Position numbers and translations under genes: made by a program. Shown one piece after another: positions 16,592 to 38,092 of a stretch of 42,739 nucleotides of DNA. The DNA is from an uncultured Candidatus Bathyarchaeia archaeon (lineage in GTDB: Archaea; Thermoproteota; Bathyarchaeia; 40CM-2-53-6; DTGE01). Numbering within the stretch: position 1 is the first letter of the stretch; every line of letters begins with the position of its first letter. The stretch is from the NCBI GenBank assembly GCA_964489085.1, contig CAZAXO010000002.1:1-42739 (forward strand), read 5' to 3'. The notes below the pieces were generated by a model. The model made no database searches and had not been told where the DNA came from. It saw only the letters and a program-made list of their open reading frames with translations.

Positions 16592-17344
16592 ATGGGTGAA
16601 CCTGAAATAATAGAATTTGATTTCAACGTTCTTTTCTTTAAAAATAAAGTAATCCATTATAGCGACACAATTTTTAATATTGATGGTTACAGCTCCATTT
16701 CTTTTAGGGCAGTTAAAAATAAAATTGATGCTCCGTCGTTTAGCTGTAATAAAGAAATTTGTTATATTATAGATTTGACACAAAGCTTAGAAGAAATTTG
16801 GAATAACATGAATAGAAACGCTCATAGAAATATTAAAAAAGCAGAAAAAGAAGGCATTAATATCGAATTTAATAAAGGATATCAAGAATTTTACAAGATG
16901 TACGAAGATCACTTAAAATCTAAGAAACATTTAAAATGGTACAACATACATAAACTAGATGAAATCAAAAAACATGGAACCCTAGTTATTGCTAAATATG
17001 GAAATGATATAATCTCAGGAAGCGTTTTTTTAGAAGATGAAAATAATATTATATATTGGATCACTGCATCTTATAGATACTCACCAAAGAAAATTATAAG
17101 ACAATTATCAGGAAACGCAACCTATTTAATCCATTGGGAAATAATAAAATATGCTAAATTAAAGGATATAAAAGAATACAATTTAGGTCCTTGCGCATAT
17201 GATGATAGAGTGAATAAAAAATTACAACAGTTTAAAAAAAGTTTAGGAAGCGAACCACATACATACTATAAATATTGTAAAGATTATAATTTTGTATATA
17301 AATTAATGCGAAAAAGTTATCAAAAATTGACAGGATTATTCTAA
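16592..17344 (+). CDS. FemAB/BioF2-like (GNAT-fold) transferase, short form
   Basis: 'DLTQSLEEIWNNMNRNAHRNIKKAEKEGINIEF...FYKMYEDHLKSKK' is the signature middle region of Fem-type / Acetyltransf_6-like proteins. It is similar to 25147..26154. Confidence 0.7.
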   Translation: MGEPEIIEFDFNVLFFKNKVIHYSDTIFNIDGYSSISFRAVKNKIDAPSFSCNKEICYIIDLTQSLEEIWNNMNRNAHRNIKKAEKEGINIEFNKGYQEFYKMYEDHLKSKKHLKWYNIHKLDEIKKHGTLVIAKYGNDIISGSVFLEDENNIIYWITASYRYSPKKIIRQLSGNATYLIHWEIIKYAKLKDIKEYNLGPCAYDDRVNKKLQQFKKSLGSEPHTYYKYCKDYNFVYKLMRKSYQKLTGLF

Positions 17345-17397
17345 ATGTATAAAACTAAAAAAATCATATCAACGAACTACATACTCTGAGGAATTAA

Positions 17398-18279
17398 ATG
17401 TATAAAGATCACAGAGTAGCGGTGGTAGTACCCGCCTACAACGAGGAAGAGCTAATCGCTTTTACTCTAGAAACTATACCCGATTATGTTGATTATATAA
17501 TTGTTATAAACGACGCTTCAATTGATAATACGTACTCAATAATTAAAGAACATCAACAGAGAGATCCGAGGATTTTTTTAATTAATCATATAGATAATCA
17601 AGGAGTGGGGGGGGCCATTATAAGTGGATTTAAGAAAAGTATGGAATATGATGCCGATATTACATCTGTAATGGCTGGTGATAATCAGATGGATCCTGAC
17701 TATCTGTCTGCACTCATTGAGCCCATTATTGATAAAAAAGCAGATTTCACAAAAGGTAATCGTTTAGCTATGGGTTATTGGGAAGGTATGAGTCTTTGGC
17801 GGCTTTTTGGTAACATCGTTTTAAATTATTTAACTAAAATTACATCGGGTTACTGGAGGATCGAGGACCCACAAAATGGTTATGTAGCTATATCAAAAAG
17901 AGCACTGAGCGTTCTCCCTTTAGATGATTTATCTAAAGGCTATAATTTTGAAAACGACATGTTAATAAAAAGTAATATTAAAAACATTAGTGTTCTTAAC
18001 GTTAAAATTCCTGCAAAATATGGAAAAGAAAAATCGAAAATAAAATATATGAACTTTATTTACAACACTATTTACTTTTTATTTATTTCTTTCATAAATA
18101 GGATATATTTAAAATATATTAAGAACTTAAAACTTATAGGATTGTTATTTGTTTCTTCCCTTATTTTAATTGTTTTAGGATTTAATAATATTATCTTAAA
18201 TAACAATTTTTTTTTACTCGGAGTATTATTATTTATATTTTCTCTCTTTTGTGATGGACTAAGTGACTATAGAAAATGA
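17398..18279 (+). CDS. Family 2 glycosyltransferase (Dpm1/DPG-synthase-like) with C-terminal TM helices
   Basis: 'VAVVVPAYNEEELI', 'VINDASIDNT', 'NQGVGGAI' and 'AGDNQMDP' are GT2 DxD-region motifs. The C-terminus is hydrophobic. Confidence 0.9.
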   Translation: MYKDHRVAVVVPAYNEEELIAFTLETIPDYVDYIIVINDASIDNTYSIIKEHQQRDPRIFLINHIDNQGVGGAIISGFKKSMEYDADITSVMAGDNQMDPDYLSALIEPIIDKKADFTKGNRLAMGYWEGMSLWRLFGNIVLNYLTKITSGYWRIEDPQNGYVAISKRALSVLPLDDLSKGYNFENDMLIKSNIKNISVLNVKIPAKYGKEKSKIKYMNFIYNTIYFLFISFINRIYLKYIKNLKLIGLLFVSSLILIVLGFNNIILNNNFFLLGVLLFIFSLFCDGLSDYRK

Positions 18280-19331
18280 AAGTAGCTTTTATTATAAACA
18301 CGCCATCTCAAGTACATTTTTATAAAAACATTATTTACGATCTTGAAAAGAAAGGTCATAAAGTATTGTTATTAGCTAGAAATTATGGTGAAACATATCA
18401 ATTATTGAAAGAATTAGATTTATCTTTTACATTTTATAATAAATATAATTTAAACGCATCATCAAAAATGATCTTCATGCCAATAGATATTTACAATATT
18501 GTTAAAAAACTTAAGTATTTTAAACCTGATATTATATCCGGTTTTGGAATCGATTCAGCCTTATCTTCTTTTTTCCTTAAAGCTAAATCCATAATCTTTA
18601 CAGATTCTGAGCCTACCATAAGTATTTTTCAAGAAATTCAATATATTTTTTTAATATATTTAAGTAATATAATTATAACTCCTGAATGTTACAAAAGAGA
18701 TCTAGGTAAAAATCACATCAGAGTAAATAGTTTTAAAGAATTAGCATATCTGCATCCAAAATATTATAAGCCAAGTAAAAAGGTATTAAATATATTAAAT
18801 TTATCTCAAAATGAAAAATATGTAATAATTAGATTCAATAAATTCGATGCCTTACATGACATTTCTAAAAGAGGGTTTTCAACACGTGATAAGATTGATT
18901 TGGTAAAAAGGATCAGTTCAATAACTAAAGTATTTGTTTCTTTTGAAGGGATTTGTCCTGATGAATTAGTTAAATATCGATTAAATATACCAAATAGGTA
19001 TATTCATGATTTATTATATTATTCTTATCTTTTCATCGCAGATACAGGAACAATGGTTACAGAAGCTGCTATTTTAGGGACTCCGGCCATTATATTTCAT
19101 CCAGCTTTAAGAAATTTTGGTAACTTTGAGGAACTAGAAAAAAAATACGAAATGATCTGGGGGTATGAAAAAAATCCAGAATTAATTGTAATAAAAGCTA
19201 TGTCTTTAGTTCGATCCTCGAGTTTAAAACAAGAATGGAAAATTAAACGTGATGTGCTGATTAATGATAAAATTGATATAACTAAATATTTTATCCAGCT
19301 TTTTGAAAATATTGGTAATAGCTTAAAGTAA
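18276..19331 (+). CDS. DUF354 family protein (archaeal GT-B/epimerase-like fold)
   Basis: The N-terminus 'MKVAFIINTPSQVHFYKNIIYDLEKKGHKVLLLARNYGETYQLL' matches my memory of the DUF354 consensus, and the length (~350 aa) fits. The start overlaps the GT2 stop (ATGA). Confidence 0.75.
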   Translation: MKVAFIINTPSQVHFYKNIIYDLEKKGHKVLLLARNYGETYQLLKELDLSFTFYNKYNLNASSKMIFMPIDIYNIVKKLKYFKPDIISGFGIDSALSSFFLKAKSIIFTDSEPTISIFQEIQYIFLIYLSNIIITPECYKRDLGKNHIRVNSFKELAYLHPKYYKPSKKVLNILNLSQNEKYVIIRFNKFDALHDISKRGFSTRDKIDLVKRISSITKVFVSFEGICPDELVKYRLNIPNRYIHDLLYYSYLFIADTGTMVTEAAILGTPAIIFHPALRNFGNFEELEKKYEMIWGYEKNPELIVIKAMSLVRSSSLKQEWKIKRDVLINDKIDITKYFIQLFENIGNSLK

Positions 19332-19422: not shown

Positions 19423-20463
19423 ATGAAGGAATATTTAAAAAGTTATGATGATGCTTGGAATTGTTATTCTTTAGAATCTGAGTATAACACAAATATTGGT
19501 GCGCGTGCGCAACGAGAGTTAATAAAAGAGCCAATCGTCTCGTCTTATTTAATTAAAAACGGATACGATCCAAAATATCCTGAAGATAAATCCTTTGTTA
19601 TCTGCTTAACTCATGACATTGATGAAATTTATACACCAATTATTCACAGAGCTCATTCGATCACATCTCTAGTCACATCTGCTAATATAGATAATCTAAG
19701 AGACGCCTTCAGAGGGCTTTTAGACAAAAAGAAAAGCAAATATCAAGACTTTGGGGAAATTATGACCTTAGAAGAGAAATATAATGCGAGATCAACATTT
19801 TTCTTTCTTGCCTCAAAAAATGATCCTTTCAGATTCAGGTACGACATCGAAGACATATGTAACGAACTTGGAAAAATAATAGATAGAGGATTCGAAATCG
19901 GGCTGCATGGAGGATATTTCTCTTATGATGACTTCAAGGCTTTATCCGAAGAGAAAACAATATTAGAGAAAATTATAGGCGTCGATGCTGAAGGCTATAG
20001 AAGTCATTACTTAAACTTGCATATTCCTATTACATGGCAACATTTGTCTAAACTTGGATTCAAATATGATACAACTCTCGGATATCGAAGAGGATCAGGC
20101 TTCATAAATGGGATGTGTCACCCATTCCATCCATACATCAAAGAGTATGACGAAGAACTGGATTTATTAGAATTGCCACTTATCGTCATGGATGCTGCAT
20201 ACCCTACCTTGGGATTCACAGTGAGTAAGTATTGGGGAGAAATATTGCGTATAATTGATGTTGTTGAGAGAAACCATGGGGTACTTACGATCAATTGGCA
20301 TAACGACTCCTTGCTTTCCACCCGTAAATCTGAACATAGAAAAATGTATGAAAAAATATTAACAGAGGGGGAAAAGAGAGGAGCTTGGTTATCGAACTGT
20401 CATGAAATATGCGAGTGGTGGGGTAGCAACTCAAAACAGTTTGAGAGCGAGATGGATTTATAG
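19423..20463 (+). CDS. Polysaccharide deacetylase-like protein (cytoplasmic, NodB-related)
   Basis: 'FVICLTHDIDEIY', 'RSTFFFLAS' and 'GFEIGLHGGY' follow the order Asp motif, ATFF strand, His motif. No signal peptide is present. Confidence 0.75.
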   Translation: MKEYLKSYDDAWNCYSLESEYNTNIGARAQRELIKEPIVSSYLIKNGYDPKYPEDKSFVICLTHDIDEIYTPIIHRAHSITSLVTSANIDNLRDAFRGLLDKKKSKYQDFGEIMTLEEKYNARSTFFFLASKNDPFRFRYDIEDICNELGKIIDRGFEIGLHGGYFSYDDFKALSEEKTILEKIIGVDAEGYRSHYLNLHIPITWQHLSKLGFKYDTTLGYRRGSGFINGMCHPFHPYIKEYDEELDLLELPLIVMDAAYPTLGFTVSKYWGEILRIIDVVERNHGVLTINWHNDSLLSTRKSEHRKMYEKILTEGEKRGAWLSNCHEICEWWGSNSKQFESEMDL

Positions 20464-20528
20464 TGAGCGAGCGATGATAGGTAGAACTAGATAAAATTTA
20501 AATCAGACATGAAGTTTTACTAGCCAAA

Positions 20529-22316
20529 TTGTCCTTGTTTCGCACACGTGTAAGAAGAGTGATTTTCCTTCTAATAATAATTCCTTATTTTAACCCTTCA
20601 ATTATAGCATTATGTTTGAATGAAGACGAGTGGGTGACAATTTTTGACCAAGATTTTTCACTAATAGAATCAATACCTTCAAATATTCATGTAATAAAAA
20701 GCTCAGATACAGAACAACCAGCTATACAAATATCTAAAAGATCTGAAGATAATTACTTAATCATAACAAAAGGCACGGATAACCGAGGCACAGTTGATAT
20801 ATTCGGTTTAACACCTTCAATTAAATGCAGATACTTGATAGACCTAGAGTGGTCCAACAGCCATTCAGCTTCATGGTCTGGTGCAGGAGTCTCTATCGGT
20901 ATAGGTGGAGTAATGTTATACTGCTACTCTAGTGGTGGAGGTTCTAGATTCTATATCCGTGGCCAATACTTCAATGCTACTAATGAATTTAATTCTCCCT
21001 TCGTCTGGGATTTAGGTACGAGCAATCGAGTAGAAATAACGATCGACACTGATACTACAGTTGGTAAAGCCTACCTTTCTTACAATAACTACAAAGCTGA
21101 GTTACCCTATTATCGTTTTTTCTGGGAAAAGGAGAAAATACAAACTGAAAACAGTACAGTCGAGTTACCTTATTATCGTTATAGATGGGTAGAAGATAAA
21201 TTCCTAAATACTTTTACTCCCGATACGATTGTACTAACGCCGCGCTCTGCTACTTCTGCTGAAGCAGATGATAATACGATAATAAAATTATATCGAGTCA
21301 CTCAGCAAGTTTATGCTCCGAACTCCGTCGTTACCATCGGATCTAATAAATATCAGGCCTTTGGATATGATGGTCCCCATCCGGCAAGTACAGTTGCTGC
21401 TGGTATGGATGAGATTAGAGATGCTAATATGAATGCAACAATATTTGCAGATATAGGTTACATGAATGATCCAAATTTTATTCAGTACCTGAAGGGATTA
21501 ATCGCTGATGGATGGGAACTCGGTATACACTACTCAGAGGGGTTGTCTACATTGAATTTAGCAAATGCCACAACCATGATGATGGAAGAGTATAAAATCA
21601 TCTCGGAGATGTTTGAAACCCAACCTTTAACCTGGTGTAGTTTAGGAAATTTAGATAACTCTACATATTCACTTCTGGCAAAAGAAAACCTGAATATGGT
21701 ATTTAGGAGCTTAAGGGTTATTCCACAAAATGTCCCAGGGAGTACTGATATAACGAATCCCACGATTTACTACTGGTTGGGTGCAGCAAAATCAGGTGCA
21801 TCAACCGTTCCTATTTATGTACATCAGACGGAGGTTGAACCTCAACCATCTAGGTCCTCTGTAGATGCAAGTAATTTTGATACTTGGTTATACTACATAA
21901 TTAATAACGGTGTTCGCTTAACTGGGTTCTATAAATGGTATATGATCAATAGTAATCAAATAGACGCTACATTCGATACTAGCGCTAATGAAACCACTAC
22001 CACAATCACTGCAAATACAAACGGGTATAATGCAATTATACTAGTCAAGATTAAATCTGATTCTGTGATTGCTGTACAACGAAACAAACAGATAATAGAC
22101 CACTCAATCTCACCGGAAGGATACATAATATTTGAGGTAGAAAACGGTGGAGAATATAAAATCACGACAATAAATTATCCTATAAATATATTTGATAAAA
22201 TGGATTTATTAATGTATTTAGCTGGTTTAGTGATTATAATCTTGATTACCTTGGCGGTCGATAAATATGGCAAAAAACCCAAAAACATGGATCATGAAGC
22301 AATAAATGATGGGTGA
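20529..22316 (+). CDS. Secreted protein with divergent NodB-like domain and C-terminal TM anchor; paralogue of N-terminal 480 aa of 31975..35112
   Basis: TTG start followed by a signal/anchor. It is colinear with the 1045-aa protein through the blocks 'DEWVT(I/V)', 'GYDGP', 'ATIFAD', 'DGWE(L/V)GIH', 'IPIYVH.TEV.P.PS', 'WYMINSNQ' and 'SPEGYIIFE'. It ends 'LLMYLAGLVIIILITLAVDKYGKKPK'. Confidence 0.85.
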   Translation: MSLFRTRVRRVIFLLIIIPYFNPSIIALCLNEDEWVTIFDQDFSLIESIPSNIHVIKSSDTEQPAIQISKRSEDNYLIITKGTDNRGTVDIFGLTPSIKCRYLIDLEWSNSHSASWSGAGVSIGIGGVMLYCYSSGGGSRFYIRGQYFNATNEFNSPFVWDLGTSNRVEITIDTDTTVGKAYLSYNNYKAELPYYRFFWEKEKIQTENSTVELPYYRYRWVEDKFLNTFTPDTIVLTPRSATSAEADDNTIIKLYRVTQQVYAPNSVVTIGSNKYQAFGYDGPHPASTVAAGMDEIRDANMNATIFADIGYMNDPNFIQYLKGLIADGWELGIHYSEGLSTLNLANATTMMMEEYKIISEMFETQPLTWCSLGNLDNSTYSLLAKENLNMVFRSLRVIPQNVPGSTDITNPTIYYWLGAAKSGASTVPIYVHQTEVEPQPSRSSVDASNFDTWLYYIINNGVRLTGFYKWYMINSNQIDATFDTSANETTTTITANTNGYNAIILVKIKSDSVIAVQRNKQIIDHSISPEGYIIFEVENGGEYKITTINYPINIFDKMDLLMYLAGLVIIILITLAVDKYGKKPKNMDHEAINDG

Positions 22317-22328: not shown

Positions 22329-22772
22329 ATGAAACTAAATAAAATTGTTATTTTATTATTAGTTATATCGGCACCTTATTCATATACAGTATATGCTGAT
22401 TTAATGGATGATGCTATAAAAGCGATTGAAGAGAGTTATTCAGCCATACTCAATGCAGAGCAAGCAGGCGGTAACGTGACAGTAGTAATTATAATGTTAA
22501 ATCAAGCATCAGATTTAGCCGTAAAAGGAGGTGATAATAACCTTAGAGATGCAATAACATTAGCAAATGAAGCCAAGTCGTTGGCTTTAACAATAGAGCA
22601 GACTAGCCGAACCGAACAAATCTATACATATTTTAAAGTAATAGCTTTTTTAATTATATCAATTATATCTATGATATTGATTAAAAAATATTTTAATATT
22701 GTATATTATTCTTTATGGGCCTCAATTAAAGGAGATTGGAGGATTGAAAAAAATAACTCCCAAAATGATTGA
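22329..22772 (+). CDS. Hypothetical secreted helical protein with C-terminal TM
   Basis: 147 aa with a signal-like N-terminus 'MKLNKIVILLLVISAPYSYTVYA', an Ala/Leu helical region, and the TM segment 'VIAFLIISIISMILI'. Confidence 0.65.
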   Translation: MKLNKIVILLLVISAPYSYTVYADLMDDAIKAIEESYSAILNAEQAGGNVTVVIIMLNQASDLAVKGGDNNLRDAITLANEAKSLALTIEQTSRTEQIYTYFKVIAFLIISIISMILIKKYFNIVYYSLWASIKGDWRIEKNNSQND

Positions 22773-25146: not shown

Positions 25147-26154
25147 TTGGTAATAAAGATAATTTCTGATCAACAAACTTGGGATTCCTTTATAGATAAC
25201 AATCAATCTTCGACATTGATGCATAAATGGGATTTCTTAAAAATAATCGAAAGATATAGTAATTATAAATTACTTACATATGGAATTTATGAAAAAGATG
25301 AATTAATGTGCATCATACCATTTTTTTTAAAACATATCTTTTTTATAAAACTTTTATTTTCTCCGCCACCGAGAATGAGTTTACCTTATTTAGGCTTTGT
25401 ATTTCATAATGATTTCTTTAGTTTAAAAGCTAATGAAAAGGAGAGTTATTTAAAAACAATTTTTATGGAAATAGATAAAGAAATAAAAAGAATCAACCCA
25501 GATTATTTATTAATAACATCTACACCTAATTTAATAGATTTTAGGATTTTTAAATGGAACAAATATTCAGTGGACGTAAATTATACATATATGCTAGATT
25601 TATCTAAACCAATAAAACAGATATTAAAAGAAATGAAGAATACAAAAAGACAAAAAATAAATAAAGCTAAAAGAGAAAATATTGAAATATGCGAGTCAAA
25701 TGATTCCGATTATGTATTTGAATCAATTAAAGAAAAGTATAAAAAACAACACATGAATTCACCCATCATAAGCAAAGAATATTTAAATGATTTAAAAAAA
25801 TCATACCCAAATAATATCATATTCAGGATAGCTAAACAAGGTGAAAAAAAAGTTGGGTCAGAAGCATTAATTAATTATCATGACCTACATTTGAATTGGT
25901 TCGGTGGAAGTAAACCAGAACATGCGCGCTCACTACCTGTAAATGAATTGTTGATTTGGGACTATATTGAAAAAGCAAAGGAGAATGGTTTAAAACGATT
26001 TGACTTTGTAGGAGCAAATAACGAAAATATATCTTATTTTAAATCTCAATTTGGACCTGAGTTAACGCCGTATATTACATTAACAAGAAAAAGTCTGATT
26101 GGTAAAATCATGGAAAAAATATATTTAATGTTTATTAGGAAAAGCCTCTTTTAA
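25147..26154 (+). CDS. FemAB/BioF2-like (tandem GNAT-fold) transferase, full length
   Basis: 335 aa with a TTG start. It begins '..QQTWDSFI......MHKWDFLKII' and includes 'LDLSKPIKQILKEMKNTKRQKINKAKRENIEI'. The C-terminal region is 'NWFGGS..........NELLIWDYIEKAKENGLKRFDFVG' (GNAT core). Confidence 0.75.
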   Translation: MVIKIISDQQTWDSFIDNNQSSTLMHKWDFLKIIERYSNYKLLTYGIYEKDELMCIIPFFLKHIFFIKLLFSPPPRMSLPYLGFVFHNDFFSLKANEKESYLKTIFMEIDKEIKRINPDYLLITSTPNLIDFRIFKWNKYSVDVNYTYMLDLSKPIKQILKEMKNTKRQKINKAKRENIEICESNDSDYVFESIKEKYKKQHMNSPIISKEYLNDLKKSYPNNIIFRIAKQGEKKVGSEALINYHDLHLNWFGGSKPEHARSLPVNELLIWDYIEKAKENGLKRFDFVGANNENISYFKSQFGPELTPYITLTRKSLIGKIMEKIYLMFIRKSLF

Positions 26155-28658: not shown

Positions 28659-29756
28659 ATGTTTGATGAATCATCAAAAAAAATATATTCATACAGTGAA
28701 GGTGACGAATATGACATTATTAATTTATTAAAGATATGTTTCAAAGAATGGAATTTATATGAAGACCCAATAAATTATTGGAAATGGAAATGGATTGATG
28801 CACCTGGTGGTTATAATATAATATTTATCAAACAAGATGAAAAAATTGTGGCTATCACACATATAATGTATCTTAAAACTAAAGTAGGTAATTCAATACT
28901 AAAAACTAGTTATAGTGATGATTTAGCAACACATCCAGATTATAGGGGTAAAGGATTATATAAAGAGCTTCGAGACCTAATAGATAATGAGGAACCAAGT
29001 AAAGGAAGTAAAATAATTTTTTCAATTAACACACATCCCGCTACTATATATTCAAATTTAAAAAGAGGAAGAGTAGTAATACCATATAAAATAGAGCAAA
29101 TGACATTAATAAAAAAAACTTATTTACACTTTAAAAAATTAAATTTAAATCATAGCACTTTATATTCAATTGGTTTTTCGCTATTTAAATTATTAAATAT
29201 TATTAGAAATATATTTAAAGGGTTTAAACATGATATAAATAACAATTATCGAATTAATAAAATTACACACTTTGATAATAAATATGATGATTTTTGGGAT
29301 ATTATTAAAGAAGATTATCTATTAATCGGTTTAAAAAACTCTGAATTTTTGAATTGGAGATATTCAGATATTAGAGGAGGAAATCATAAAATATACGAAA
29401 TTTCTGATAATGATAAAATTTTAGGTTTTATGATTCTTGAAATTCGTGATAATAATGGATATAAAACAGGATATATTTTAGAATTATTATCTTTAAAAGA
29501 TCGGGAAGATGTAATAATTCATCTATTAGAAAACCTGAAAAAAGAAATGTTAGAATTAGAAATAAATACTATAAATTTTAAAACAACAAGTAAAAAGATG
29601 ATTAAATTATTAGATAAATTTGGATTTATTAAAATGCCTTTTACTAAAGAATTCCAAGCGATGTATAAATTCATTGACTCCGATGAGGAAAAGATTATTT
29701 TCCTAACTGCTCAACCTGACGAAATATATTGGGGTTATGGAAATTACTTTTTATAA
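28659..29756 (+). CDS. Two-domain GNAT-family acyltransferase (paralogue 1 of 3)
   Basis: 'Y.EGDEYDIINLLK..F.EW......INYWKWKW.D.P', the motif-A-like 'DDLATHPDYRGKGLY', and a second GNAT-like half 'ILGFMILEIRDNNGYKTGYILELL'. It is colinear with 35409 and 36998. Confidence 0.8.
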   Translation: MFDESSKKIYSYSEGDEYDIINLLKICFKEWNLYEDPINYWKWKWIDAPGGYNIIFIKQDEKIVAITHIMYLKTKVGNSILKTSYSDDLATHPDYRGKGLYKELRDLIDNEEPSKGSKIIFSINTHPATIYSNLKRGRVVIPYKIEQMTLIKKTYLHFKKLNLNHSTLYSIGFSLFKLLNIIRNIFKGFKHDINNNYRINKITHFDNKYDDFWDIIKEDYLLIGLKNSEFLNWRYSDIRGGNHKIYEISDNDKILGFMILEIRDNNGYKTGYILELLSLKDREDVIIHLLENLKKEMLELEINTINFKTTSKKMIKLLDKFGFIKMPFTKEFQAMYKFIDSDEEKIIFLTAQPDEIYWGYGNYFL

Positions 29757-29811
29757 AGATACATTATAATATTTTTTATTATAAAATAAATTTTTTTATC
29801 TAGATACCATC

Positions 29812-31767
29812 ATGAAATCGATAAAAAAGGTTATGTGTGCACCGAGGCATAAGTGGTTAGTTAAGGATATTGGGTGCAAGAATATGACTTTTAACAACAT
29901 CGATAAGTACTCACTCACATTAAAATTGATTATATTTCTTACGCCTTTATTATTTTTATTTGGTTTAATTGTGCCATATGTTTTTGGCTATATATCTTAT
30001 TCAATTTATTCTCTATATATTACAATCCCGTTAATATTCGCTATTGTAATATTTTATTTAGTGAGAAATAAAAAAGATATTATATTTGAATTTAATAATA
30101 AATATTTATATATATTCGATGTTTTATATTCACTAATATATTTAATATCTATAATCATCCTTTTACATTACGATATTAGAATTACTTTATATTTTATATT
30201 TTTGGATTGTCTTTTTATTATTATTTTAATTAAAATATTATTTTTTAATGACTTAGAGTATAATAAGTACGTTATAATGTTCCAAATAATTATTTTTTTT
30301 ATGAATTTATCTTATGGAATCTCTTTAAAATATCCCCAGTTTATTGGAAGAGGTGATACAATTTATCATAGTTGGTATATTAAATTATTAATAGAAGGTG
30401 GCTGGAATAATAGAACTATTATATCTAGTTATTATAGATTCCCACTTTGGCATTTATTTGTATCAGCTGTATCAATCATTACTAAGATAGATACAGAACC
30501 TTATAAGATCATGTTTCTATTAAATGGAATTATAAATTCTAGCATAATTATTATATCTTATTATATTTCTAAATTTTTATTTATTAAGGAAAAAATAGCT
30601 TATCTAACGAGTCTATTACTATGCATATATCCTAGTTTCATTGTTAATACGATACAAGCGCTTCCAAGAGCCATAAATGGAAGTCTTATTGCAGTTGTGT
30701 TATTTTTATTATTAAAACGCGATTACACAGTCTTTAAAGTTTTAGTCCTTTTTATTGGATTGTCTATGATCCTTTTCCACCATGCTTCAATGATATCTGT
30801 TTTAGTTATTTATTCAATTATGTTTAGTTTACAATTTTTCTATAGCATTAAAGATGAGGATCAAATAATAGATTTAAGATATATATTAATTATTATGCTA
30901 TGTATAATGGGATATTGGTTTTCTTATGCAGATTTTCTCTTAACTGATATTATGGCCTCACTGGATATTAGTGCATCAGCTGTTTATTCTTCACCAAGTG
31001 GGTTTCAAATAGCGGAGATGCTTAACTTTGTGCAATATTCCCCCTACATATTTTTTACTACGATTAGTCTCCTTGCGCTGTTATGGTATGGTTATTATGG
31101 AGACAGAGTTAAAATATTAGGCGTGGTTGGCTTCGGTCTTCTTGCACTATCTATTCCTAATCCTTTATCGTCTGTATATAGCCGTTATACAACACTTATT
31201 TTTAATAGATTAATGGAGTATACCTCTGTTTTCATTATTATAATTACTAGTTATGGTTTATTCTACGTTTTTCAAAAAGTAAGTAAGAGTATTAAAATTA
31301 TATTTATTGTATTCATGTTTTTAACTTGTATCTTATCAATAGATAATGATTTTACAGCAAGTGATAACCCATTAATTAAAAGAGATTTCTATACTTACTA
31401 TCTTTCCAACCCAGAGATCAGTTCTATAGAGACTTTAATTAAAATTTCTAATAATAATTATTTAATGTCCGACTATCAAATTTGGCGGTTTATTGTTCAT
31501 TCAAACTATTCTTATAAAAGCCATCTTTTAGAAGTTGACTACAACCATACAGTGTTTTTTAAAGAAAGATATATGGATTTAATCGTGATTAGAGAAAGTG
31601 AATTACAAAAAAGGTCTTTAAACCTTTTCGCAACTAATGAATATATCAGAGATCCTTCTTGGGTTGAGGGTAGGTTAGTGTATTTATTTTATGATGAGCA
31701 AGTTTTTGATACCCTTAATACTTATAATCGTAATTATGATAATGGTAATGTAGTAGCCTATAATTAA
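29812..31767 (+). CDS. Polytopic membrane protein (~13-15 TM) with C-terminal soluble domain; Wzy/GT-C-like polymerase or transferase candidate
   Basis: 651 aa. The first ~500 aa are extremely hydrophobic, followed by a ~140-aa hydrophilic tail. No WWDYG (AglB) motif was seen. The start may be ATG 29884. Confidence 0.8.
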   Translation: MKSIKKVMCAPRHKWLVKDIGCKNMTFNNIDKYSLTLKLIIFLTPLLFLFGLIVPYVFGYISYSIYSLYITIPLIFAIVIFYLVRNKKDIIFEFNNKYLYIFDVLYSLIYLISIIILLHYDIRITLYFIFLDCLFIIILIKILFFNDLEYNKYVIMFQIIIFFMNLSYGISLKYPQFIGRGDTIYHSWYIKLLIEGGWNNRTIISSYYRFPLWHLFVSAVSIITKIDTEPYKIMFLLNGIINSSIIIISYYISKFLFIKEKIAYLTSLLLCIYPSFIVNTIQALPRAINGSLIAVVLFLLLKRDYTVFKVLVLFIGLSMILFHHASMISVLVIYSIMFSLQFFYSIKDEDQIIDLRYILIIMLCIMGYWFSYADFLLTDIMASLDISASAVYSSPSGFQIAEMLNFVQYSPYIFFTTISLLALLWYGYYGDRVKILGVVGFGLLALSIPNPLSSVYSRYTTLIFNRLMEYTSVFIIIITSYGLFYVFQKVSKSIKIIFIVFMFLTCILSIDNDFTASDNPLIKRDFYTYYLSNPEISSIETLIKISNNNYLMSDYQIWRFIVHSNYSYKSHLLEVDYNHTVFFKERYMDLIVIRESELQKRSLNLFATNEYIRDPSWVEGRLVYLFYDEQVFDTLNTYNRNYDNGNVVAYN

Positions 31768-31974: not shown

Positions 31975-34900
31975 TTAAGTTACGTTATTGTTTACGCCTT
32001 CATCCACTATTGGGCCACTATTTCCGCTTCCTTGATTATTCTCAGTTGTAGAATCTAGCCTTACGCCAACCGCGCTTCCCACAATATAGTTATTGTTGAT
32101 GAGGCTGTCGCGAGTATTATCCAAGGTTATCCCTGTCGTAGGACATCCTGAGATAGTGTTATCAAGTATCTGTATATTAGTGGCACGTCTACCAGAACCT
32201 CCTAACCATATACCATAAGCGGCTGCGTCTGCGATCGTGTTTTTCTGTACTATAATCTCGTCTTGGTAGTAAGTTACTCCTGTAACATAGTAGGTGCCTA
32301 CTCTTATTCCATAAATATCTAGGTCATGGAAGTTGTTACCAAATATTCTCCCTGAATAACCCATATGACTTATTCCATATCCTTTCCCAGTTGCCTCGTT
32401 GTATAAGAAGTCGATAAACTCGCCTACGGGGTGGCAGTCGTACTGGTTCTGCACACCCCAAATTCCAGATGATGATATCCAATACTGGCTATCCTCGCTA
32501 TAGCATTGCAGTATGGTGATATGTCTGGGTACTCCCGACATTGTCGAGGAATCAGCTGCAACCATGGCGTGTCGGCAATTATAGAACTCACAATATTCTA
32601 TAACCACGTTCTGACACGCATAGATTATGTCAACGCCGTACCCGGCCCCATCCAACGTGGCTTTTTCAAATATGTTGTGGTCTATTCTGCTATTTATGAC
32701 GCTATCGAAGCGTATAGCTTTGGACTCTATTCCATCGAATTGACAGTTAGTAATTCTTATGTTATCGCCATATATGAATCGTAAACCATCGAACTTCTTT
32801 TGTTGAACTGAAGGGTAGGTATCCCAAGCGTTTATCGTGTTCAGGAATCTGATCCCTTCGATAGTAATATCTTGTACAGGTTCAACCAGCGATACACTTG
32901 TTGTTGATTGAAGGTAGGTATCCTCAAGTGGAGCTTCTAAGGTTAAGGTGTTCCCGTTTATCCCTACTACTCTGCGTATCTCTCCCTGTTTCAGCCCAGG
33001 GGAGTTGTCGTGCCATACATCTGTTGACCAAATAAATATTAGATCATCGATGATCGCGCCCAGATTTGTAGCTGTTGTTACGGTAGTCTGACCTTTATTT
33101 AATGTGCTTGCAGGTTGTACTGTAACAAGTGTTTGACCAGCTGTATACATTATTGTTGAAGATACGGGTAGGTTGCTTACATCAAGAACGGTACCTGCCT
33201 CGCCTTTCAAGTTTATTCCGCTTCTCCCTGTTAGTCCAGAGGTTAATGGGTAAATTCCCGACTTTATCAGGATCGTGTCACCGTACTCAACTTTGGAGGA
33301 ATCTAGTGCGTTTGTTTGTATCGCTTCGTATGCCGTGCTAGAAGACATAGTAGTGCCATCTGCATAGGTAGTCAAATATGAATTTAGACCCAATAACTGA
33401 ACTGTGTGTATGTCAGAGTAAGTAGACTGTGAGAATGTGGCTATTACTGTCTTGTCTGAATCCATTATAATTGAAACAGGATTTGTAGAGCCAGACACAT
33501 CACCACTCCAATCACTGAATGTCCATCCAGAAGCAGGGCTCGCAAATAGTTGAACCATTGATCCAGAGTCGTAAGATACTTGATCAGGAATTCTAGTTAC
33601 TGATCCTTGTCCCACTGTGTTAACAGATAATGTGTAACCTGATGGCGGTGTTTCTGTTGTAGTAACTTTATAAGTTTCACTATCTTTAGCTTCAAAAATG
33701 ATGTATCCTTCTGGTGATGCCCAATGTTCAACTGGTAGACCATTACTTACACGAGTTACAGAAATTACTGTACTTTCTTGTATTTTGACTAGAACTATCG
33801 CGTTGTATCCGTTTGTATCTACTTCGATATCGGTATAACCAGAACCAATAGTCGAAGTGGGTACAGCATCTAATTGATTACTATTGATCATATACCAATT
33901 CTGATACCCTGTCAACTTAACATCATTACTGATAATTGCAGCTAACCATTGGTCAAACAAAACAGCATCTATATCAGAACCAGAAGGAGCTGGGCTTACC
34001 TCTGTTGTATGTACATAGATTGGTATCGTTGCTACTCCAGCGTTAGCCGCACCCATCCAATAATCGATATTGTCGTCTATTATATCATGGGATCCAACAT
34101 TAACTTGTGGATAAACCCTCCACATTCTTAGAAACATATTCAGGTTATCGTACACCCATTGTTCTTTCATTGGATCATCTAAACGCCCTCTACCTAGAAT
34201 ACACCAACTTAAAGGTGGACGACCTCCAAACGAACTTGTTATGCTGTTATACTCGTTAGTCATAATAGCTTGTTCCTCCTCCCATGTGTAGGTTGTACCA
34301 TCTCCAAGAGCGTAATCTGTGAAGTGAATGCCCACTTCCCAACCATCATCTACAAGACCGTTTAAATATGAAAGGTAACTTTGATCCAAGATATAGTCTA
34401 CATCTGCAAATATTGTACCATTCATTCCTGCTGCTCTAATTTCATTCATACCAGCCTCTACGCCAGAGCGAGCTTTTGGGCCATCATAACCATATGCTTG
34501 ATATTGAGTCGATCCAATTACGCTAACTAAGCCAGGTGCATTAACTTGCTGAGTAACGTGATATATGGTTGCTACACCTCCGGCAGAGGAAACCCCCAGT
34601 GTCATAGGAGTAAATATGTTTGCACTCCGATCTGTTATGTATGCAGGTTCATAGTATGGTAAATCGTCAGTAAAAGTCCCAGCTGAAATATTAGCTATTC
34701 CTAGACTAGAATCCGTATCAATCGTTATAATTGCTCGATTAGTACCCATGTTCCAAGAAAAAACAGTACCTGACCTATGAATACCGAGAATATAAGTACC
34801 AGAGAGCCTGAATCTGACCCCACCTACGCCTAAATACCCTCCAGATGAATCCCAACCAACGTCCACTATAAATCTAGATTTAACTGTCGGCACTAAACCA

Positions 34901-35112
34901 TAAATGGTATTAGTTGTTCCAGTTGGGTAATCCTGATCATAAACCGTCACCCATTCGTCAGGGGGTGAATCGGTTATTATAGATCCATTTGAGAAAATGA
35001 TTATAAAATCTGATAGTATCGACTTCGCTAGAGGTGCAAAGATCAAAGAACTCAAGAGGACAAGAAGAATGATGACAAATATCTTTAATGTACACTCACG
35101 CTTTTTCTTCAT
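31975..35112 (-). CDS. Secreted tri-modular protein: divergent NodB-like domain + InlB B-repeat-like domain + right-handed parallel beta-helix (pectate-lyase-like)
   Basis: It has a signal peptide 'MKKKRECTLKIFVIILLVLLSSLIFAPLA'. Residues ~50-480 are paralogous to 20529..22316. 'YTLSVNTVGQGSVTRIP....Y..GS.V.L.A.PASGWTFSDWSGDVSG..NP..I.M..DKTVIATF' is the B-repeat. The C-terminal ~450 aa carry repeated 'I.I..C.F', 'N.I.' and 'G(I/V)' beta-helix rungs ('ITIEGIRFLN','IRITNCQFDG','VVIEYCEFYNC','IQILDNTISG'). Confidence 0.85.
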   Translation of the reverse strand: MKKKRECTLKIFVIILLVLLSSLIFAPLAKSILSDFIIIFSNGSIITDSPPDEWVTVYDQDYPTGTTNTIYGLVPTVKSRFIVDVGWDSSGGYLGVGGVRFRLSGTYILGIHRSGTVFSWNMGTNRAIITIDTDSSLGIANISAGTFTDDLPYYEPAYITDRSANIFTPMTLGVSSAGGVATIYHVTQQVNAPGLVSVIGSTQYQAYGYDGPKARSGVEAGMNEIRAAGMNGTIFADVDYILDQSYLSYLNGLVDDGWEVGIHFTDYALGDGTTYTWEEEQAIMTNEYNSITSSFGGRPPLSWCILGRGRLDDPMKEQWVYDNLNMFLRMWRVYPQVNVGSHDIIDDNIDYWMGAANAGVATIPIYVHTTEVSPAPSGSDIDAVLFDQWLAAIISNDVKLTGYQNWYMINSNQLDAVPTSTIGSGYTDIEVDTNGYNAIVLVKIQESTVISVTRVSNGLPVEHWASPEGYIIFEAKDSETYKVTTTETPPSGYTLSVNTVGQGSVTRIPDQVSYDSGSMVQLFASPASGWTFSDWSGDVSGSTNPVSIIMDSDKTVIATFSQSTYSDIHTVQLLGLNSYLTTYADGTTMSSSTAYEAIQTNALDSSKVEYGDTILIKSGIYPLTSGLTGRSGINLKGEAGTVLDVSNLPVSSTIMYTAGQTLVTVQPASTLNKGQTTVTTATNLGAIIDDLIFIWSTDVWHDNSPGLKQGEIRRVVGINGNTLTLEAPLEDTYLQSTTSVSLVEPVQDITIEGIRFLNTINAWDTYPSVQQKKFDGLRFIYGDNIRITNCQFDGIESKAIRFDSVINSRIDHNIFEKATLDGAGYGVDIIYACQNVVIEYCEFYNCRHAMVAADSSTMSGVPRHITILQCYSEDSQYWISSSGIWGVQNQYDCHPVGEFIDFLYNEATGKGYGISHMGYSGRIFGNNFHDLDIYGIRVGTYYVTGVTYYQDEIIVQKNTIADAAAYGIWLGGSGRRATNIQILDNTISGCPTTGITLDNTRDSLINNNYIVGSAVGVRLDSTTENNQGSGNSGPIVDEGVNNNVT

Positions 35113-35408
35113 CTTGGCCCCGCCTGATTTGATAGATAAATGAACATTTAATATAAAGGATATTATGGGCTTTAAATATTATTTAAAAAACGTGGTTATA
35201 AATTTAGATAGAAAATTATTTTATTAAATGGTAGAAATATCAGATAACAGTAAAAAGGGGATATTTACTAGTGTAAGACCCATAATTAATAAAGTACGGA
35301 ATAAAGAAATCATGTATCTTTCCTAGAATACACCGTACCAGAGCAAGTCGACTTTATTTATACTACGATTATATGAGTAAATGTTAAATATTTTTATGGC
35401 TCATCATA

Positions 35409-36491
35409 TTAAAAATAATTTAATTGCACTCTATCAGAGTTAATCTTATCAAAAAATTCATCAATAAGTTGAGGGTTACATGCTTTATAGTAAAATAATG
35501 TATTCCTCCACATTGAAGCATCTATGAAATAATGACTCAAAGCTAACTTTTGGTATGGATGATTTTTTGTTACAGGATAATAGATAACATCTACATTATT
35601 TTCATCAAAATATTTACATGCATCTTCTATAAGTAAATCTGCGACATCAAGCCTATCTGGTATTACAAGTAATGCCCTTATGTCTCCTTCTACATAACCG
35701 TTACTTACTAAGATGGAAAGAATACTGAACCCGATAATTTCATTGTCTAGAATCGCCATTTTTATTTGACTATGTCTACCTGGCCTATCTTTTTTCCAAT
35801 TTAAGTAATCAATTTTCTTTTCAACAATGTAATCGAACCCTTTTTTGGCTTTTTCCCAAAAAGCATCTATACGATAATCAAACTCGTTTGCCTTAACTAT
35901 TGAAAAGTCAACAGATTTTACTGACTTTGATTTTAATATGTTTCTTATCTTATTAAGTCCAATCATTCCTCTTATTCCAATGTTCATGATTAAACTATTT
36001 TTTTGGTTTCTACTAAGGAACTTTTTAATATTTTTTACTTTTATCATGTGTGAGATAAAGAAAGGTAGTTGTTTAAAACCGTCTTTCATTTCATATTTTG
36101 ATATAATTGGATTCTCCGTAGCGAAATAACGGTAATCTATTCTATTTTTTATTTCGTATTCTTTCATAATTTTTCTAATATGTGCATATATGCCTCGACC
36201 TCTATATCCACTCGAAACAGCACCATCATCAGCATAAGAACATAAGAATATGGAGTCACCGAGCTTCATAGACAGTATAATTAAGTGTACAACACCAACT
36301 ATTTCATCTGCATCTGAACAAACAACAATAAACGATTTAAGAGGAGAGTTAAGATACTTCCATTTCCAATTATCAATAGCTGATGGTAAACGCCTCCATT
36401 TCAAGAAGTTATTCTTTAATAGATTAACTATTTTTTCTTCATCCCCTGGAGAATAAACCCTAAAAGTTAAATCGTTGGGCAAGATGAGCAT
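35409..36491 (-). CDS. Two-domain GNAT-family acyltransferase (paralogue 2 of 3)
   Basis: 'YSPGDEEKIVNLLKNNFLKW......IDNWKWKYLNSPLK' and 'DDGAVSSGYRGRGIY', with a second half 'IIGFSILSILVSNGYVEGDIRALLV'. Confidence 0.8.
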   Translation of the reverse strand: MLILPNDLTFRVYSPGDEEKIVNLLKNNFLKWRRLPSAIDNWKWKYLNSPLKSFIVVCSDADEIVGVVHLIILSMKLGDSIFLCSYADDGAVSSGYRGRGIYAHIRKIMKEYEIKNRIDYRYFATENPIISKYEMKDGFKQLPFFISHMIKVKNIKKFLSRNQKNSLIMNIGIRGMIGLNKIRNILKSKSVKSVDFSIVKANEFDYRIDAFWEKAKKGFDYIVEKKIDYLNWKKDRPGRHSQIKMAILDNEIIGFSILSILVSNGYVEGDIRALLVIPDRLDVADLLIEDACKYFDENNVDVIYYPVTKNHPYQKLALSHYFIDASMWRNTLFYYKACNPQLIDEFFDKINSDRVQLNYF

Positions 36492-36633
36492 ACATAGTTT
36501 CTAACTCTTTAATATATTTTTTATCGTTTTTATTTAACGCAGAAGCATAACTCAGGTTTTCGGTATAGATAAACAAGATCATTTATTTTCTTCTAATTCT
36601 ATCAATCAGAATCATCATATATTTAAGAAGGTG

Positions 36634-36780
36634 ATGAAAAAGATATCATCAACAATACTTGGAATCGTTCTCCTCGCATGGAAAGTTAATAGTTTAGAAC
36701 TTTGTATAGGAAACAATTTAACTACCATTAGATTAGATATCGTTGTAGCTGGAAAAAATTCAATAAATTGGGATTTCTAG
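36634..36780 (+). CDS. Possible 48-aa signal-peptide-bearing small ORF or N-terminal gene remnant
   Basis: My own translation gives 'MKKISSTILGIVLLAWKVNSLELCIGNNLTTIRLDIVVAGKNSINWDF', preceded by 'aaGGTGatg'. It is below the track cutoff and lies in the 500-nt gap between two GNAT paralogues. Confidence 0.2.
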   Translation: MKKISSTILGIVLLAWKVNSLELCIGNNLTTIRLDIVVAGKNSINWDF

Positions 36781-36997
36781 ATTCTATTTCATCGCCCTAT
36801 ATTATATTAAATATCACTAAAAAGGGAGTGTGGAGTAATTTAAAATGCAAGAGCAAAAAAAATCTCGTATACATACTTGAACATTATACATTAAAGGTGC
36901 ATTTCAATTGCGAAGAATTACACGCATAAGCGTACTAGAGTAAATATTAATAATTTTCAATTGCTTGAGAGTAAAAAATAGATGAGATAAAAAAGCC

Positions 36998-38092
36998 TCA
37001 TAAGGTTGTGGAATAGTTGAAGTATACTTGGCTCGGTACAGTTTTTTTTAGAAACGGGATCTCGCTTGGAGCGTTTCCTTGCCAATTAACGCTGTAATCG
37101 AACGAGACGTTTGGTCTTGATTGCGAGTTTAGGAACCCATGTCTCCTGGAAAGCTCCTGATATGGGTGACCCTCAACAAGTTGATAATATACGGTGTTTA
37201 TATCTAGGTCATTCAAACACTTACAGACATGATTCATGAGAGCGTCAGCCACATCAAGCCTATCCCTCACAGCAAGCAGATCCACGATCTGACCTTCAGA
37301 AAACCCTTGCTTATACTCTACAACCGTATAACCAAGTATCTCTTCCCCACACATCGCTTGGAATATTAAGTGGCTGCCCCGGTCGTTGTCCGTGAACCTC
37401 CAATTCAGATACTCGGACCTCTTCTCGAGTATGAAGTTGTAATCATCCTTTATTTTATCCCAGAATGAGTCGATGTTTTTATTAAATTCAGTGATCTGGG
37501 TTATCTGGAACTCGTCAATTTGTTTGATTGGTTGTTTGAACAGGTTTGTTATCTTGTTTAGGTTGCTGAGAAGGATGTATCCAAGTTTTAGGTGTAGCTT
37601 GTTTTCTTTGGGGCGTATGGATAGTAGATGGTCTAAGTCTTTTGTTTTGATCATGCGGGTGACTGTAAAAGGAAGCAATGCTCTTTTTCTTTTCACCCAG
37701 CTCTCAAGAACAATTGGATTCACTGTAGTTGAAAATATGTACTTTGCACTAGAAACAAATTTTTCTTCTTTCAGGGCATGCATTTTGTTATAGATACCCA
37801 TTCCTCTATAGTCAGCATCAACCGCCAAGTCGTCAAAATAGCCTAATGTTGTTATTTCTGGACCTATTTTAGCGTTAAAGATTAGTGAAGGATTGCATCC
37901 GACGATTTTATCATCGGTAACAGCCACTGAGATGATGGACTTTAAAGGTGTGTCGATGTACTTCCATCTCCAGAGCCCCAGAGGATCCTTAAATGCCGCC
38001 CATTTAGGAAACGTCTTCTTTAATAGCTCTACGATGTTTTCGTCGTCGCCTGGCTCATAGAAACGAACACTAACATTAACATTGTTACTCAA
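36998..38092 (-). CDS. Two-domain GNAT-family acyltransferase (paralogue 3 of 3)
   Basis: 'YEPGDDENIVELLKKTFPKW......LGLWRWKYIDTPLK' and 'DDLAVDADYRGMGIY', with a second half 'ILGYTVVEYKQGFSEGQIVDLLAV'. G+C is noticeably higher than in paralogue 1. Confidence 0.8.
   Translation of the reverse strand: MSNNVNVSVRFYEPGDDENIVELLKKTFPKWAAFKDPLGLWRWKYIDTPLKSIISVAVTDDKIVGCNPSLIFNAKIGPEITTLGYFDDLAVDADYRGMGIYNKMHALKEEKFVSSAKYIFSTTVNPIVLESWVKRKRALLPFTVTRMIKTKDLDHLLSIRPKENKLHLKLGYILLSNLNKITNLFKQPIKQIDEFQITQITEFNKNIDSFWDKIKDDYNFILEKRSEYLNWRFTDNDRGSHLIFQAMCGEEILGYTVVEYKQGFSEGQIVDLLAVRDRLDVADALMNHVCKCLNDLDINTVYYQLVEGHPYQELSRRHGFLNSQSRPNVSFDYSVNWQGNAPSEIPFLKKTVPSQVYFNYSTTL

Follow-up and report, generated by a model that had tools for sequence, protein, structure and literature searches.

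The stretch of DNA considered here (the window) comprises 42,739 nucleotides of contig CAZAXO010000002.1 (assembly GCA_964489085.1) from an uncultured Candidatus Bathyarchaeia archaeon. Between positions 16592 and 38092 it encodes five transferases that belong to two mechanistic kinds, namely two FemABX-type proteins and three tandem GNATs of ~360 amino acids (aa). The window probably represents a mosaic surface-glycan island in which these five cytoplasmic transferases tailor amino sugars before a Wzx-type flippase exports the lipid-linked unit. The arrangement is recurrent in relatives and constitutes an uncharacterised toolkit rather than an oddity of this genome.

Five transferase genes of two kinds

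All five open reading frames (ORFs) described in the initial annotation of this DNA were recovered, two of them on the minus strand, and a local hidden Markov model (HMM) scan found no family members beyond these five in the window. The genes are listed below and are referred to by their first coordinate; GC denotes guanine-plus-cytosine content.

16592..17344, plus strand: short Fem-like transferase, 250 aa, GC 26% (Pfam FemAB)
25147..26154, plus strand: two-domain FemX-fold transferase, 335 aa (Pfam, AlphaFold2, Foldseek)
28659..29756, plus strand: tandem-GNAT paralogue 1, 365 aa, GC 23.5% (Pfam Acetyltransf_9, 5.7e-9)
35409..36491, minus strand: tandem-GNAT paralogue 2, 360 aa, GC 30.3% (Pfam Acetyltransf_9, 6e-8)
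36998..38092, minus strand: tandem-GNAT paralogue 3, 364 aa, TTG start, GC 41.0% (AlphaFold2, Foldseek)

The Pfam matches separate the two kinds. The 16592 protein matches FemAB (6e-11; 42.2 bits against a gathering cutoff of 24), although the match is confined to the C-terminal portion of that profile (283-377 of 406), and the 25147 protein matches Acetyltransf_6 (6e-11) as well as FemAB (1e-6; 28.1 bits against the same cutoff of 24). The matches of 28659, 35409 and 36998 are to Acetyltransf_9 or Acetyltransf_1 and are confined to residues ~10-118, which leaves the tandem GNATs without Pfam coverage past the first ~110 residues; 28659 and 35409 pass the Acetyltransf_9 cutoff, while 36998 falls just under it (22.1 versus 25) and passes Acetyltransf_1 instead. 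No NCBIfam model scored above its cutoff for any of the five proteins. Two of the genes (25147 and 36998) use TTG start codons, and no N-terminal hydrophobic segment is apparent in any of the five protein sequences. The literature searched (PF13480, DUF354, FemAB in archaeal, polysaccharide and PEP-CTERM contexts, and tRNA-dependent O-antigen or capsule modification) yielded no characterised member of either family.

The Fem-like proteins

An aminoacyl-tRNA-type Fem fold is supported for both 16592 and 25147, which share only ~21% identity. The AlphaFold2 model of 25147, built from a 67-sequence alignment, is confident (predicted local distance difference test (pLDDT) 94, predicted template-modelling score 0.91), and together with the Foldseek comparison it reveals two GNAT-like domains. 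The 11 best neighbours of this model in the PDB are all aminoacyl-tRNA-dependent enzymes, headed by Staphylococcus aureus FemX and FemA, Sbb17/Sba18 and Weissella FemX (template-modelling (TM) score 0.71). MprF and other aminoacyl-phosphatidylglycerol synthases come next, and coenzyme A (CoA)-dependent tandem GNATs rank far lower. The Sbb17 and Sba18 structures were crystallised with the amino-sugar intermediate streptothrisamine.

Sequence comparisons point in the same direction. A search of the PDB with the single 25147 sequence gave no match, but the profile of the 335-aa family matches Weissella FemX (E 3e-4) over a region that includes the basic helix of domain 2, where TKRQKINKAKREN in 25147 and NAHRNIKKAEKEG in 16592 align with SKTKSKIKRPFRDG in FemX and LRKRNTKKVKKNG in FemA. 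In FemX, the acceptor stem of the tRNA docks on a positively charged helix of domain 2 (PMC12945691), and Lys305 of the Weissella viridescens enzyme (FemX Wv) is reviewed as the sole reactive active-site residue (PMC12945691). An F-K motif (F298-K299) is present in 25147. The 103 homologues of 25147 (~330-345 aa, all generically named) come from metagenomes, Clostridia, Pelotomaculum, Methanocella, Methanolobus and Methanotrichaceae. One database version of 25147 itself (P0121) begins at a downstream ATG and is 311 aa long; the TTG start is supported because the near-invariant residues W12 and D13 lie upstream of that ATG.

The 16592 protein aligns to residues 140-326 of the 335-aa protein and is a conserved form that consists of Fem domain 2 only. 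Nine homologues were found, seven of which are 237-259 aa long and 59-68% identical; the other two are shorter (156 and 175 aa, covering 58-67% of the query). Since a length of ~250 aa is conserved in these seven homologues, 16592 is not a truncation. The possibility of a frameshifted pseudogene with its N-terminal domain in ORF 16005-16367 was rejected, that ORF having no similarity to the Fem N-domain. Within the 16592 family, F214-K215 is invariant (8/8 sequences), and the family profile matches FemA (1lrz, E 9e-6) and Sbb17 (E 0.009) in the PDB, with F214-K215 aligned on the F-K of both.

The tandem GNAT paralogues

The three paralogues can be aligned colinearly from end to end (29-36% identity), as had been proposed, and they are part of a very large, unnamed and uncharacterised family. 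An exhaustive profile search recovered 6,039 clusters at 50% identity with E<=1e-30 and 17,669 with E<=1e-10, and nearly all of the 150 clusters listed are full-length (~360 aa). The sequence motifs quoted in the initial annotation are present in all three paralogues, except that 28659 has EGD in place of PGD. The N-terminal motif comprises Y12, G15-D16, I20, L23-L24-K25, F28, W31, W41, W43-K44 and P49, and the motif-A-like segment comprises Y85, D87-D88, A90, Y95-R96-G97, G99 and Y101; P93, Y95, R96 and G99 are near-invariant in 80 aligned family sequences.

The second GNAT-like half that had been postulated is evident in the AlphaFold2 model of 36998 (pLDDT 91.7; 80-sequence alignment), which consists of two GNAT halves with helices between them and aligns over its full length to tandem-GNAT structures. 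Foldseek matches to this model include the clavulanate enzyme CBG (2wpx) and the Eis-like proteins 3n7z, 2i00, 2hv2 and 3ryo (proteins of Bacillus anthracis and Enterococcus faecalis and Mycobacterium tuberculosis Eis; TM ~0.6), together with N-myristoyltransferases (NMT), the Clostridium glucosamine N-acetyltransferase 5kf1 and VipF. No Fem, MprF, L/F-transferase or MshD structure appears among the 50 matches listed. A Fem-type reading is supported for 16592 and 25147 but not for the three ~360-aa paralogues, for which the initial annotation had hinted at it and whose fold neighbours are Eis-like proteins, NMT, CBG and glucosamine N-acetyltransferase.

The best PDB sequence match of the tandem-GNAT profile is also Eis-like (3n7z, E 4e-7), and the alignment spans the loops ATHPDYRGRG and ATYPEYRRSG, which we take to be the GNAT pyrophosphate-binding loop. 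This CoA loop (YRGxGIY) is restricted to the N-terminal half; the C-terminal half (GQIVDLLAVRDRLDVAD) lacks any R/Q-x-x-G-x-G/A loop. Because the CoA loop is N-terminal and has no C-terminal counterpart, the polarity of the tandem GNATs appears to be that of Eis and NMT, with the donor probably bound in the N-terminal half and the acceptor in the C-terminal half. Retention of an Eis-like acyl-CoA loop therefore suggests that the donor is an acyl-CoA and not a tRNA. Neither SCP2_2 nor Acetyltransf_17 matched any of the three paralogues in Pfam even at E<=1, and in the 36998 model the chain ends ~30 residues past the second GNAT.

Age and composition of the paralogues

The strong differences in nucleotide composition reported for the three paralogues were confirmed, with third-codon-position GC (GC3) rising in the same order as overall GC (15% in 28659, 25% in 35409 and 46% in 36998). 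The paralogues are not recent duplicates, since orthologues found elsewhere are 62-80% identical and the siblings within the window only 29-36%. The closest orthologue of 36998 shares 80% identity over 364 aa (L008, 6139-7230) and another shares 62% (L007); for 35409 the values are 75% (P0004) and 63% (L008, 5018-6094), and for 28659 they are 77% (P0003) and 62% (L007). (L and P numbers designate related loci and proteins, respectively.) The three orthologous groups co-reside in L008 and L007, and their GC ranking is kept in other contigs (24-26%, 30-32% and 38-48%); the composition difference is therefore old. Recent separate acquisition as an explanation of the GC differences was rejected, orthologues on other contigs keeping the same ranking.

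The window as a whole is a compositional mosaic. The segments 16592-19331, 25147-26154, 28659-31767 and 35409-36491 have 23-30% GC (GC3 15-25%), and housekeeping-type genes of the window (GlmS, LysA-like, amidohydrolase and UDP-sugar dehydrogenase) have 40-50% GC.

Genomic neighbourhood

The transferase genes are embedded among genes for glycan synthesis and for membrane or secreted proteins:

14232..15635, minus strand: Wzx/MurJ-type flippase (Pfam Polysacc_synt_3, 7e-23; Polysacc_synt; MurJ)
17398..18279, plus strand: family 2 glycosyltransferase (Pfam Glycos_transf_2, 1.9e-21)
18276..19331, plus strand: DUF354 protein (Pfam DUF354, 1.4e-13)
19423..20463, plus strand: CE4-like protein, 346 aa, no signal peptide (weak Polysacc_deac_1)
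20529..22316, plus strand: secreted or anchored protein, 595 aa, paralogue of the N-terminal half of 31975-35112
29812..31767, plus strand: polytopic membrane protein, 651 aa (no Pfam or PDB match)
31975..35112, minus strand: secreted beta-helix protein, 1045 aa (Pfam Beta_helix, Flg_new_2, NosD)
39324..40289, plus strand: GFO/IDH/MocA oxidoreductase, WbpB-like (Pfam; same gene order in L008)
40300..41658, plus strand: UDP-sugar 6-dehydrogenase, WbpA/WecC-like (Pfam UDPG_MGDP_dh N-terminal, central and C-terminal)
41757..42739, plus strand: aminotransferase-like open frame running off the window end (frame translation)

The initial description of GNAT-superfamily transferases in a glycan cluster holds for all five genes, and the flippase and glycosyltransferase neighbours that it named are present, the glycosyltransferase being of family 2, together with DUF354. 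No Mur or other peptidoglycan genes were found in the window, where the context consists of Wzx, the family 2 glycosyltransferase, DUF354, the CE4-like protein and the WbpA/B/E-like genes. The frame at 41757 can be read as DegT/WbpE-like from its sequence and synteny; in L008 a DegT_DnrJ_EryC1 gene occupies the matching position directly after the GFO/IDH/MocA and UDP-sugar dehydrogenase genes.

Over 627 aa, the 651-aa membrane protein shares 32% identity with a protein from a Methanolobus glycan cluster, and genes for such ~630-650-aa proteins always directly follow a 28659-type GNAT, a position kept in L007 and L092; it is possibly a polymerase or a GT-C-like enzyme. The proteins encoded at 20529-22316 and 31975-35112 are 39% identical over 557 aa, and the shared part has no Pfam match. 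Orthologues of the former, 574-591 aa long, are found at the equivalent place in L007, L092 and L094, and in L008 a 906-aa Flg_new_2 protein adjoins the GNAT array.

The genes for DUF354, CE4-like and Fem-like proteins form a conserved, uncharacterised module, and the window proteins add members to known enzyme kinds within it. In L092, L093 and L094 a 346-aa CE4-like gene follows the short Fem-like gene by 18-32 base pairs (bp), and in Methanocella paludicola SANAE and Methanolobus sp. ZRKC2 DUF354 comes first, followed by a ~350-aa protein and a Fem-like protein, with overlapping gene ends. A CE4-like gene adjoins or overlaps a Fem-like gene in L092, L093, L094, L095 (Methanocella), L096 (Methanolobus), L001 and L007. 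The window CE4-like protein is 40% identical to the Methanocella protein whose gene overlaps the start of the Fem-like gene, and the window DUF354 protein is 35% identical to the Methanocella paludicola protein of the same module. A local profile derived from genuine Polysacc_deac_1 proteins picks up the CE4-like protein, and PDB sequence searches with this protein and with the 651-aa membrane protein gave no match. A density of such enzymes like that in the window had been regarded as unusual for an archaeon without murein; the presence of Fem-like genes in Methanocella, Methanolobus and Methanotrichaceae, within the same module, contradicts this.

Two paralogous ~230-aa proteins (24207-24899 and 26175-26882; 51% identical), each with an N-terminal transmembrane helix and a coiled coil, are encoded on either side of the low-GC gene 25147. 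In L007 and L094, similar genes of 228-240 aa neighbour those for Fem-like, DUF354 or GNAT proteins.

Related loci

The local HMM scan covered 91 fetched loci in addition to the window, and the fractions given below refer to the 28 sequences of at least 8 kb, window included. Wherever the flanking DNA is long enough (~15 related loci), the setting is a glycan cluster, with genes for family 1, 4 and 2 glycosyltransferases, Wzx, DegT and epimerases, and with AglB in two cases; glycosyltransferase, Wzx, DegT or AglB genes occur in each of L001, L002, L004-L008, L010 and L011. One of these relatives (L005) is a Bathyarchaeota metagenome-assembled genome, and this, like the presence of DUF1616 and AglB in relatives, indirectly points to a host of the Bathyarchaeia type. 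One protein (P0252) is a fusion of a family 2 glycosyltransferase with a tandem GNAT. The initial annotation had named a lack of linkage to glycan genes in other genomes as evidence against a glycan role, and this linkage is present in the related loci examined. It had also called the density of these enzymes unusual, a view contradicted by the arrays of two to five tandem-GNAT paralogues in half of the longer loci (at least two members in 14/28, up to 5; a few are single-gene fragments).

A CE4 or PIG-L deacetylase gene is present in 10/28 loci, and in L011 a gap of 7 bp separates it from the tandem GNAT gene downstream. Fem-like genes occur in 6/28; in L066 and L082 the Fem-like gene stands directly beside a tandem GNAT gene in the same direction. 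L001 again combines two Fem-like with three GNAT genes, but two of its GNAT matches reach only 224 and 301 aa. In L008 three consecutive paralogues lie next to an Flg_new_2 protein and WbpB/A/E-like genes, as in the right part of the window.

In L002 a MaoC-type dehydratase gene (11425-11850) immediately follows the tandem GNAT gene, and in L007 a CapK-like AMP-ligase and a pyridoxal-phosphate-dependent decarboxylase are encoded nearby (3832-6708). These are possible acyl-donor genes and hint at donors other than acetyl groups.

Alternative explanations

The strongest alternative, although an unlikely one, is that all five proteins, the Fem-like ones included, are ordinary acyl-CoA-dependent amino-sugar N-acyltransferases that use no tRNA. 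In its favor, the best Pfam match of 25147 is Acetyltransf_6, database entries for the Fem-like family are labelled 'GNAT family N-acetyltransferase' or 'BioF2-like acetyltransferase', and the literature searched contains no experimental donor for any PF13480 protein. Several further observations weigh against tRNA-dependent aminoacylation of glycans. The putative catalytic lysine of the F-K motif is variable in the 335-aa family (K in 47/67 sequences, R in 7/67 and Q in 5/67), and because it is not invariant the FemX mechanism may not extend to the whole family. With FemX Wv, the HMMER alignment ends at residue 295, short of K305, so that K299 of 25147 can be equated with K305 by motif rather than by alignment. 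The 250-aa protein is without the acceptor-binding domain 1 and may require a partner. For the CE4-like protein, the Polysacc_deac_1 score stays under the Pfam cutoff (16.5 versus 23.1 bits, E 0.008), and with THDID and GLHGGYF at the relevant positions the second His of H-x-x-x-H is not evident, which makes deacetylase activity uncertain. Lastly, 22/28 tandem-GNAT loci have no Fem-like gene nearby, and for this reason MshD-like capping of an added amino acid is not a general role of tandem GNATs.

Against purely CoA-dependent chemistry stand the exclusively aminoacyl-tRNA-dependent nearest structures of 25147, far above the CoA-dependent tandem GNATs, and the FemAB scores over the Pfam cutoff. 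The F-K motif is invariant in the short family and aligned with FemA and Sbb17, a basic helix of the form RxxI(K/N)KA is conserved in the Fem-like proteins, and 25147 has no visible R/Q-x-x-G-x-G/A loop past beta-4 of domain 2. Tailoring by two kinds of enzyme, tRNA-dependent and CoA-dependent, is thus preferred.

It is also conceivable, but improbable, that the tandem GNATs act off the glycan (e.g., on the N-termini of S-layer proteins or pilins, on polyamines or on aminoglycoside-like toxins) and are merely located inside a variable island. By sequence, the PDB entries nearest to them are acetyltransferases of the Eis-like and AAC(2') types and one that acts on polyamines. By fold, NMT, which N-acylates proteins, matches strongly, and pilin-like genes are located at 6-8 kb in the window. 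However, wherever a related locus has enough flanking DNA it is a glycan cluster, in Bathyarchaeota, Planctomycetota and further lineages, and a glycan substrate is likewise indicated by the glycosyltransferase fusion and by the operon-like spacing of tandem GNAT genes to deacetylase (7 bp, L011) and glycosyltransferase genes.

The remaining two alternatives are far weaker. That the three ~360-aa paralogues are themselves Fem-type aminoacyl-tRNA transferases is very improbable; they share the duplicated GNAT fold with FemX and at times adjoin Fem-like genes, but their best fold matches are Eis-like, NMT and CBG, their sequence match to Eis-like proteins extends across the CoA loop, their Pfam family is Acetyltransf_9 and not FemAB, and they have no F-K motif. 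Redundancy or decay, with duplicated cassettes in a recombining island and some copies non-functional, is an equally poor account of the multiplicity, since the paralogous pairs in the window (20529/31975, 24207/26175 and 6088/7246) and the fragmented family members in L001, L017, L055 and L079 are outweighed by five full-length window ORFs with intact family-conserved residues, and by full-length 62-80% orthologues of each paralogue in groups that co-occur in relatives, implying purifying selection on distinct functions.

Proposed pathway

From the folds, motifs, family membership and conserved neighbourhoods described above, we infer the following donors, acceptors and order of steps. The CE4-like protein (19423) would de-N-acetylate a sugar in the cytoplasm and thereby expose a free amine. 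The Fem-fold enzymes (25147 and 16592) would then move an amino acid from aminoacyl-tRNA, most likely onto this sugar amine. The tandem GNATs would N-acylate sugar amines (most likely) or the new alpha-amine from acyl-CoA; the amines available to them could arise from the WbpA/B/E-like pathway, from deacetylases or from the newly added aminoacyl group, following the logic of MshB-MshC-MshD. Their degenerate C-terminal half would accommodate the acceptor, and each paralogue might be dedicated to a different acyl group or position. Wzx would subsequently flip the unit across the membrane, where the 651-aa membrane protein and the secreted beta-helix proteins would work outside the cell.

A broader generalisation is offered more tentatively, as a possibility somewhat short of even. 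In murein-less archaea, from Bathyarchaeia to Methanocella and Methanolobus, FemX-fold enzymes together with DUF354 and a dedicated cytoplasmic CE4-like de-N-acetylase may place tRNA-borne amino acids on the amino sugars of surface or N-linked glycans, and arrays of Eis-like tandem GNATs may then diversify the N-acyl groups.

Comparison with known systems

FemX Wv and the S. aureus enzymes FemX and FemA (PF02388) have the same double-GNAT fold without a CoA loop as 25147 (TM 0.69-0.71). FemX Wv and 25147 are both 335 aa long and without a coiled-coil insert, and the basic helix and F-K motif are common to the two. Identity to FemX/FemA is only 11-14%, however, and 16592 has domain 2 alone. The partners also differ (Mur ligases for FemABX and a CE4-like protein in the window), and a peptidoglycan-precursor acceptor is not indicated, the window context being that of a Wzx-dependent glycan and the module occurring in methanogens.

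Sba18 and Sbb17, which occupy Foldseek ranks 3, 4 and 7 for 25147, have the Fem fold (TM 0.68-0.70 normalised to the query and 0.78-0.81 to the target), and the amino-sugar aminoacylation carried out by Orf11, Sba18 and Sbb17 is the chemistry proposed for the window Fem-like enzymes. The difference lies in the setting; these enzymes act in actinomycete antibiotic pathways on a small-molecule acceptor, whereas a nucleotide- or lipid-linked surface glycan is proposed for the window. To our knowledge, no deacetylase partner accompanies them. Orf11 glycylates streptothrisamine with Gly-tRNA as the donor (PMC12945691).

The PEP-CTERM/XrtA FemAB family (TIGR03019) provides another example of a Fem-like protein in an exopolysaccharide locus and is the best NCBIfam match of 25147 (2.4e-18). 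With window scores of 66.3 (25147) and 28.1 against a cutoff of 260 bits, the window proteins are not members, and the family is bacterial and likewise uncharacterised.

For the tandem GNATs, Eis-type acetyltransferases are the closest by sequence (E 4e-7) and among the closest by fold (TM ~0.6; identity ~10%). In both, the CoA-binding GNAT is the N-terminal one and carries an (H/Y)R(R/G)RG loop, while the second GNAT is degenerate. Eis, at ~400 aa, additionally has a C-terminal SCP2-like domain, whereas the window proteins are 360 aa long and without PF13530 or PF17668. The substrates of Eis are amino-sugar antibiotics in a resistance context, in contrast to the biosynthetic glycan context of the window GNATs. 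The glucosamine N-acetylating enzyme 5kf1 and CBG (2wpx) are tandem GNATs of similar size to 36998 (TM 0.53-0.61, identity 12-13%), but the catalytic residues of 5kf1 (D287 and Y297) lie in its C-terminal domain, whereas the CoA loop of the window proteins is N-terminal.

MshB/MshC/MshD and NodB/NodA follow the same logic as the proposed pathway, in which N-acetylglucosamine is de-N-acetylated and then receives a new acyl or aminoacyl group; MshD, a tandem GNAT, acetylates the added amino acid. A Msh-like pairing of deacetylase and tandem GNAT recurs in the related loci. The likeness to the Msh and Nod systems is purely one of analogy; no orthology is detectable. MshC belongs to the ATP-dependent ligases and is not a Fem enzyme, and the C-terminal domain is the catalytic one in MshD, whereas the window tandem GNATs have no CoA loop in that half.

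Significance

If the Fem-fold enzymes use aminoacyl-tRNA, then tRNA-dependent aminoacylation would not be confined to peptidoglycan, membrane lipids and antibiotics but would include the surface glycans of archaea, and a route by which amide-linked amino acids reach some glycans would be explained. If all of them are plain N-acetyltransferases, the window would be an ordinary, variable glycan island. Two testable units emerge, the DUF354/CE4-like/Fem-like module in cultured methanogens and the ~360-aa tandem-GNAT family tied to glycan loci, and both represent annotation gaps.

Other features of the window

At the left edge of the window, ORF 1-630 encodes a bona fide Polysacc_deac_1 protein with an ATG at window base 1. 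Its Pfam match begins at profile position 28 of 124, and the gene may start upstream of the window. GlmS is encoded at 2454-4235, and because of this gene and the Polysacc_deac_1 protein the amino-sugar theme extends window-wide.

A split DUF1616 pair (22699-23229 and 23196-23792) has its halves swapped, the first ORF matching profile positions 162-281 and the second 6-112, and the same split pair is present in L092 and L094. Three genes (6088-6456, 6641-7105 on the minus strand and 7246-7821) encode small proteins of secreted or pilin-like character, in which the N-terminal segment is hydrophobic and the linkers are proline-rich. Two of these (6088 and 7246) are 49% identical; an antisense ORF overlaps 6088-6456, which may be a remnant. 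The sole RNA gene detected by Rfam and tRNA scans is a tRNA-Lys (CTT) at 12803-12880, just upstream of the first glycan genes, where it could mark the island boundary.

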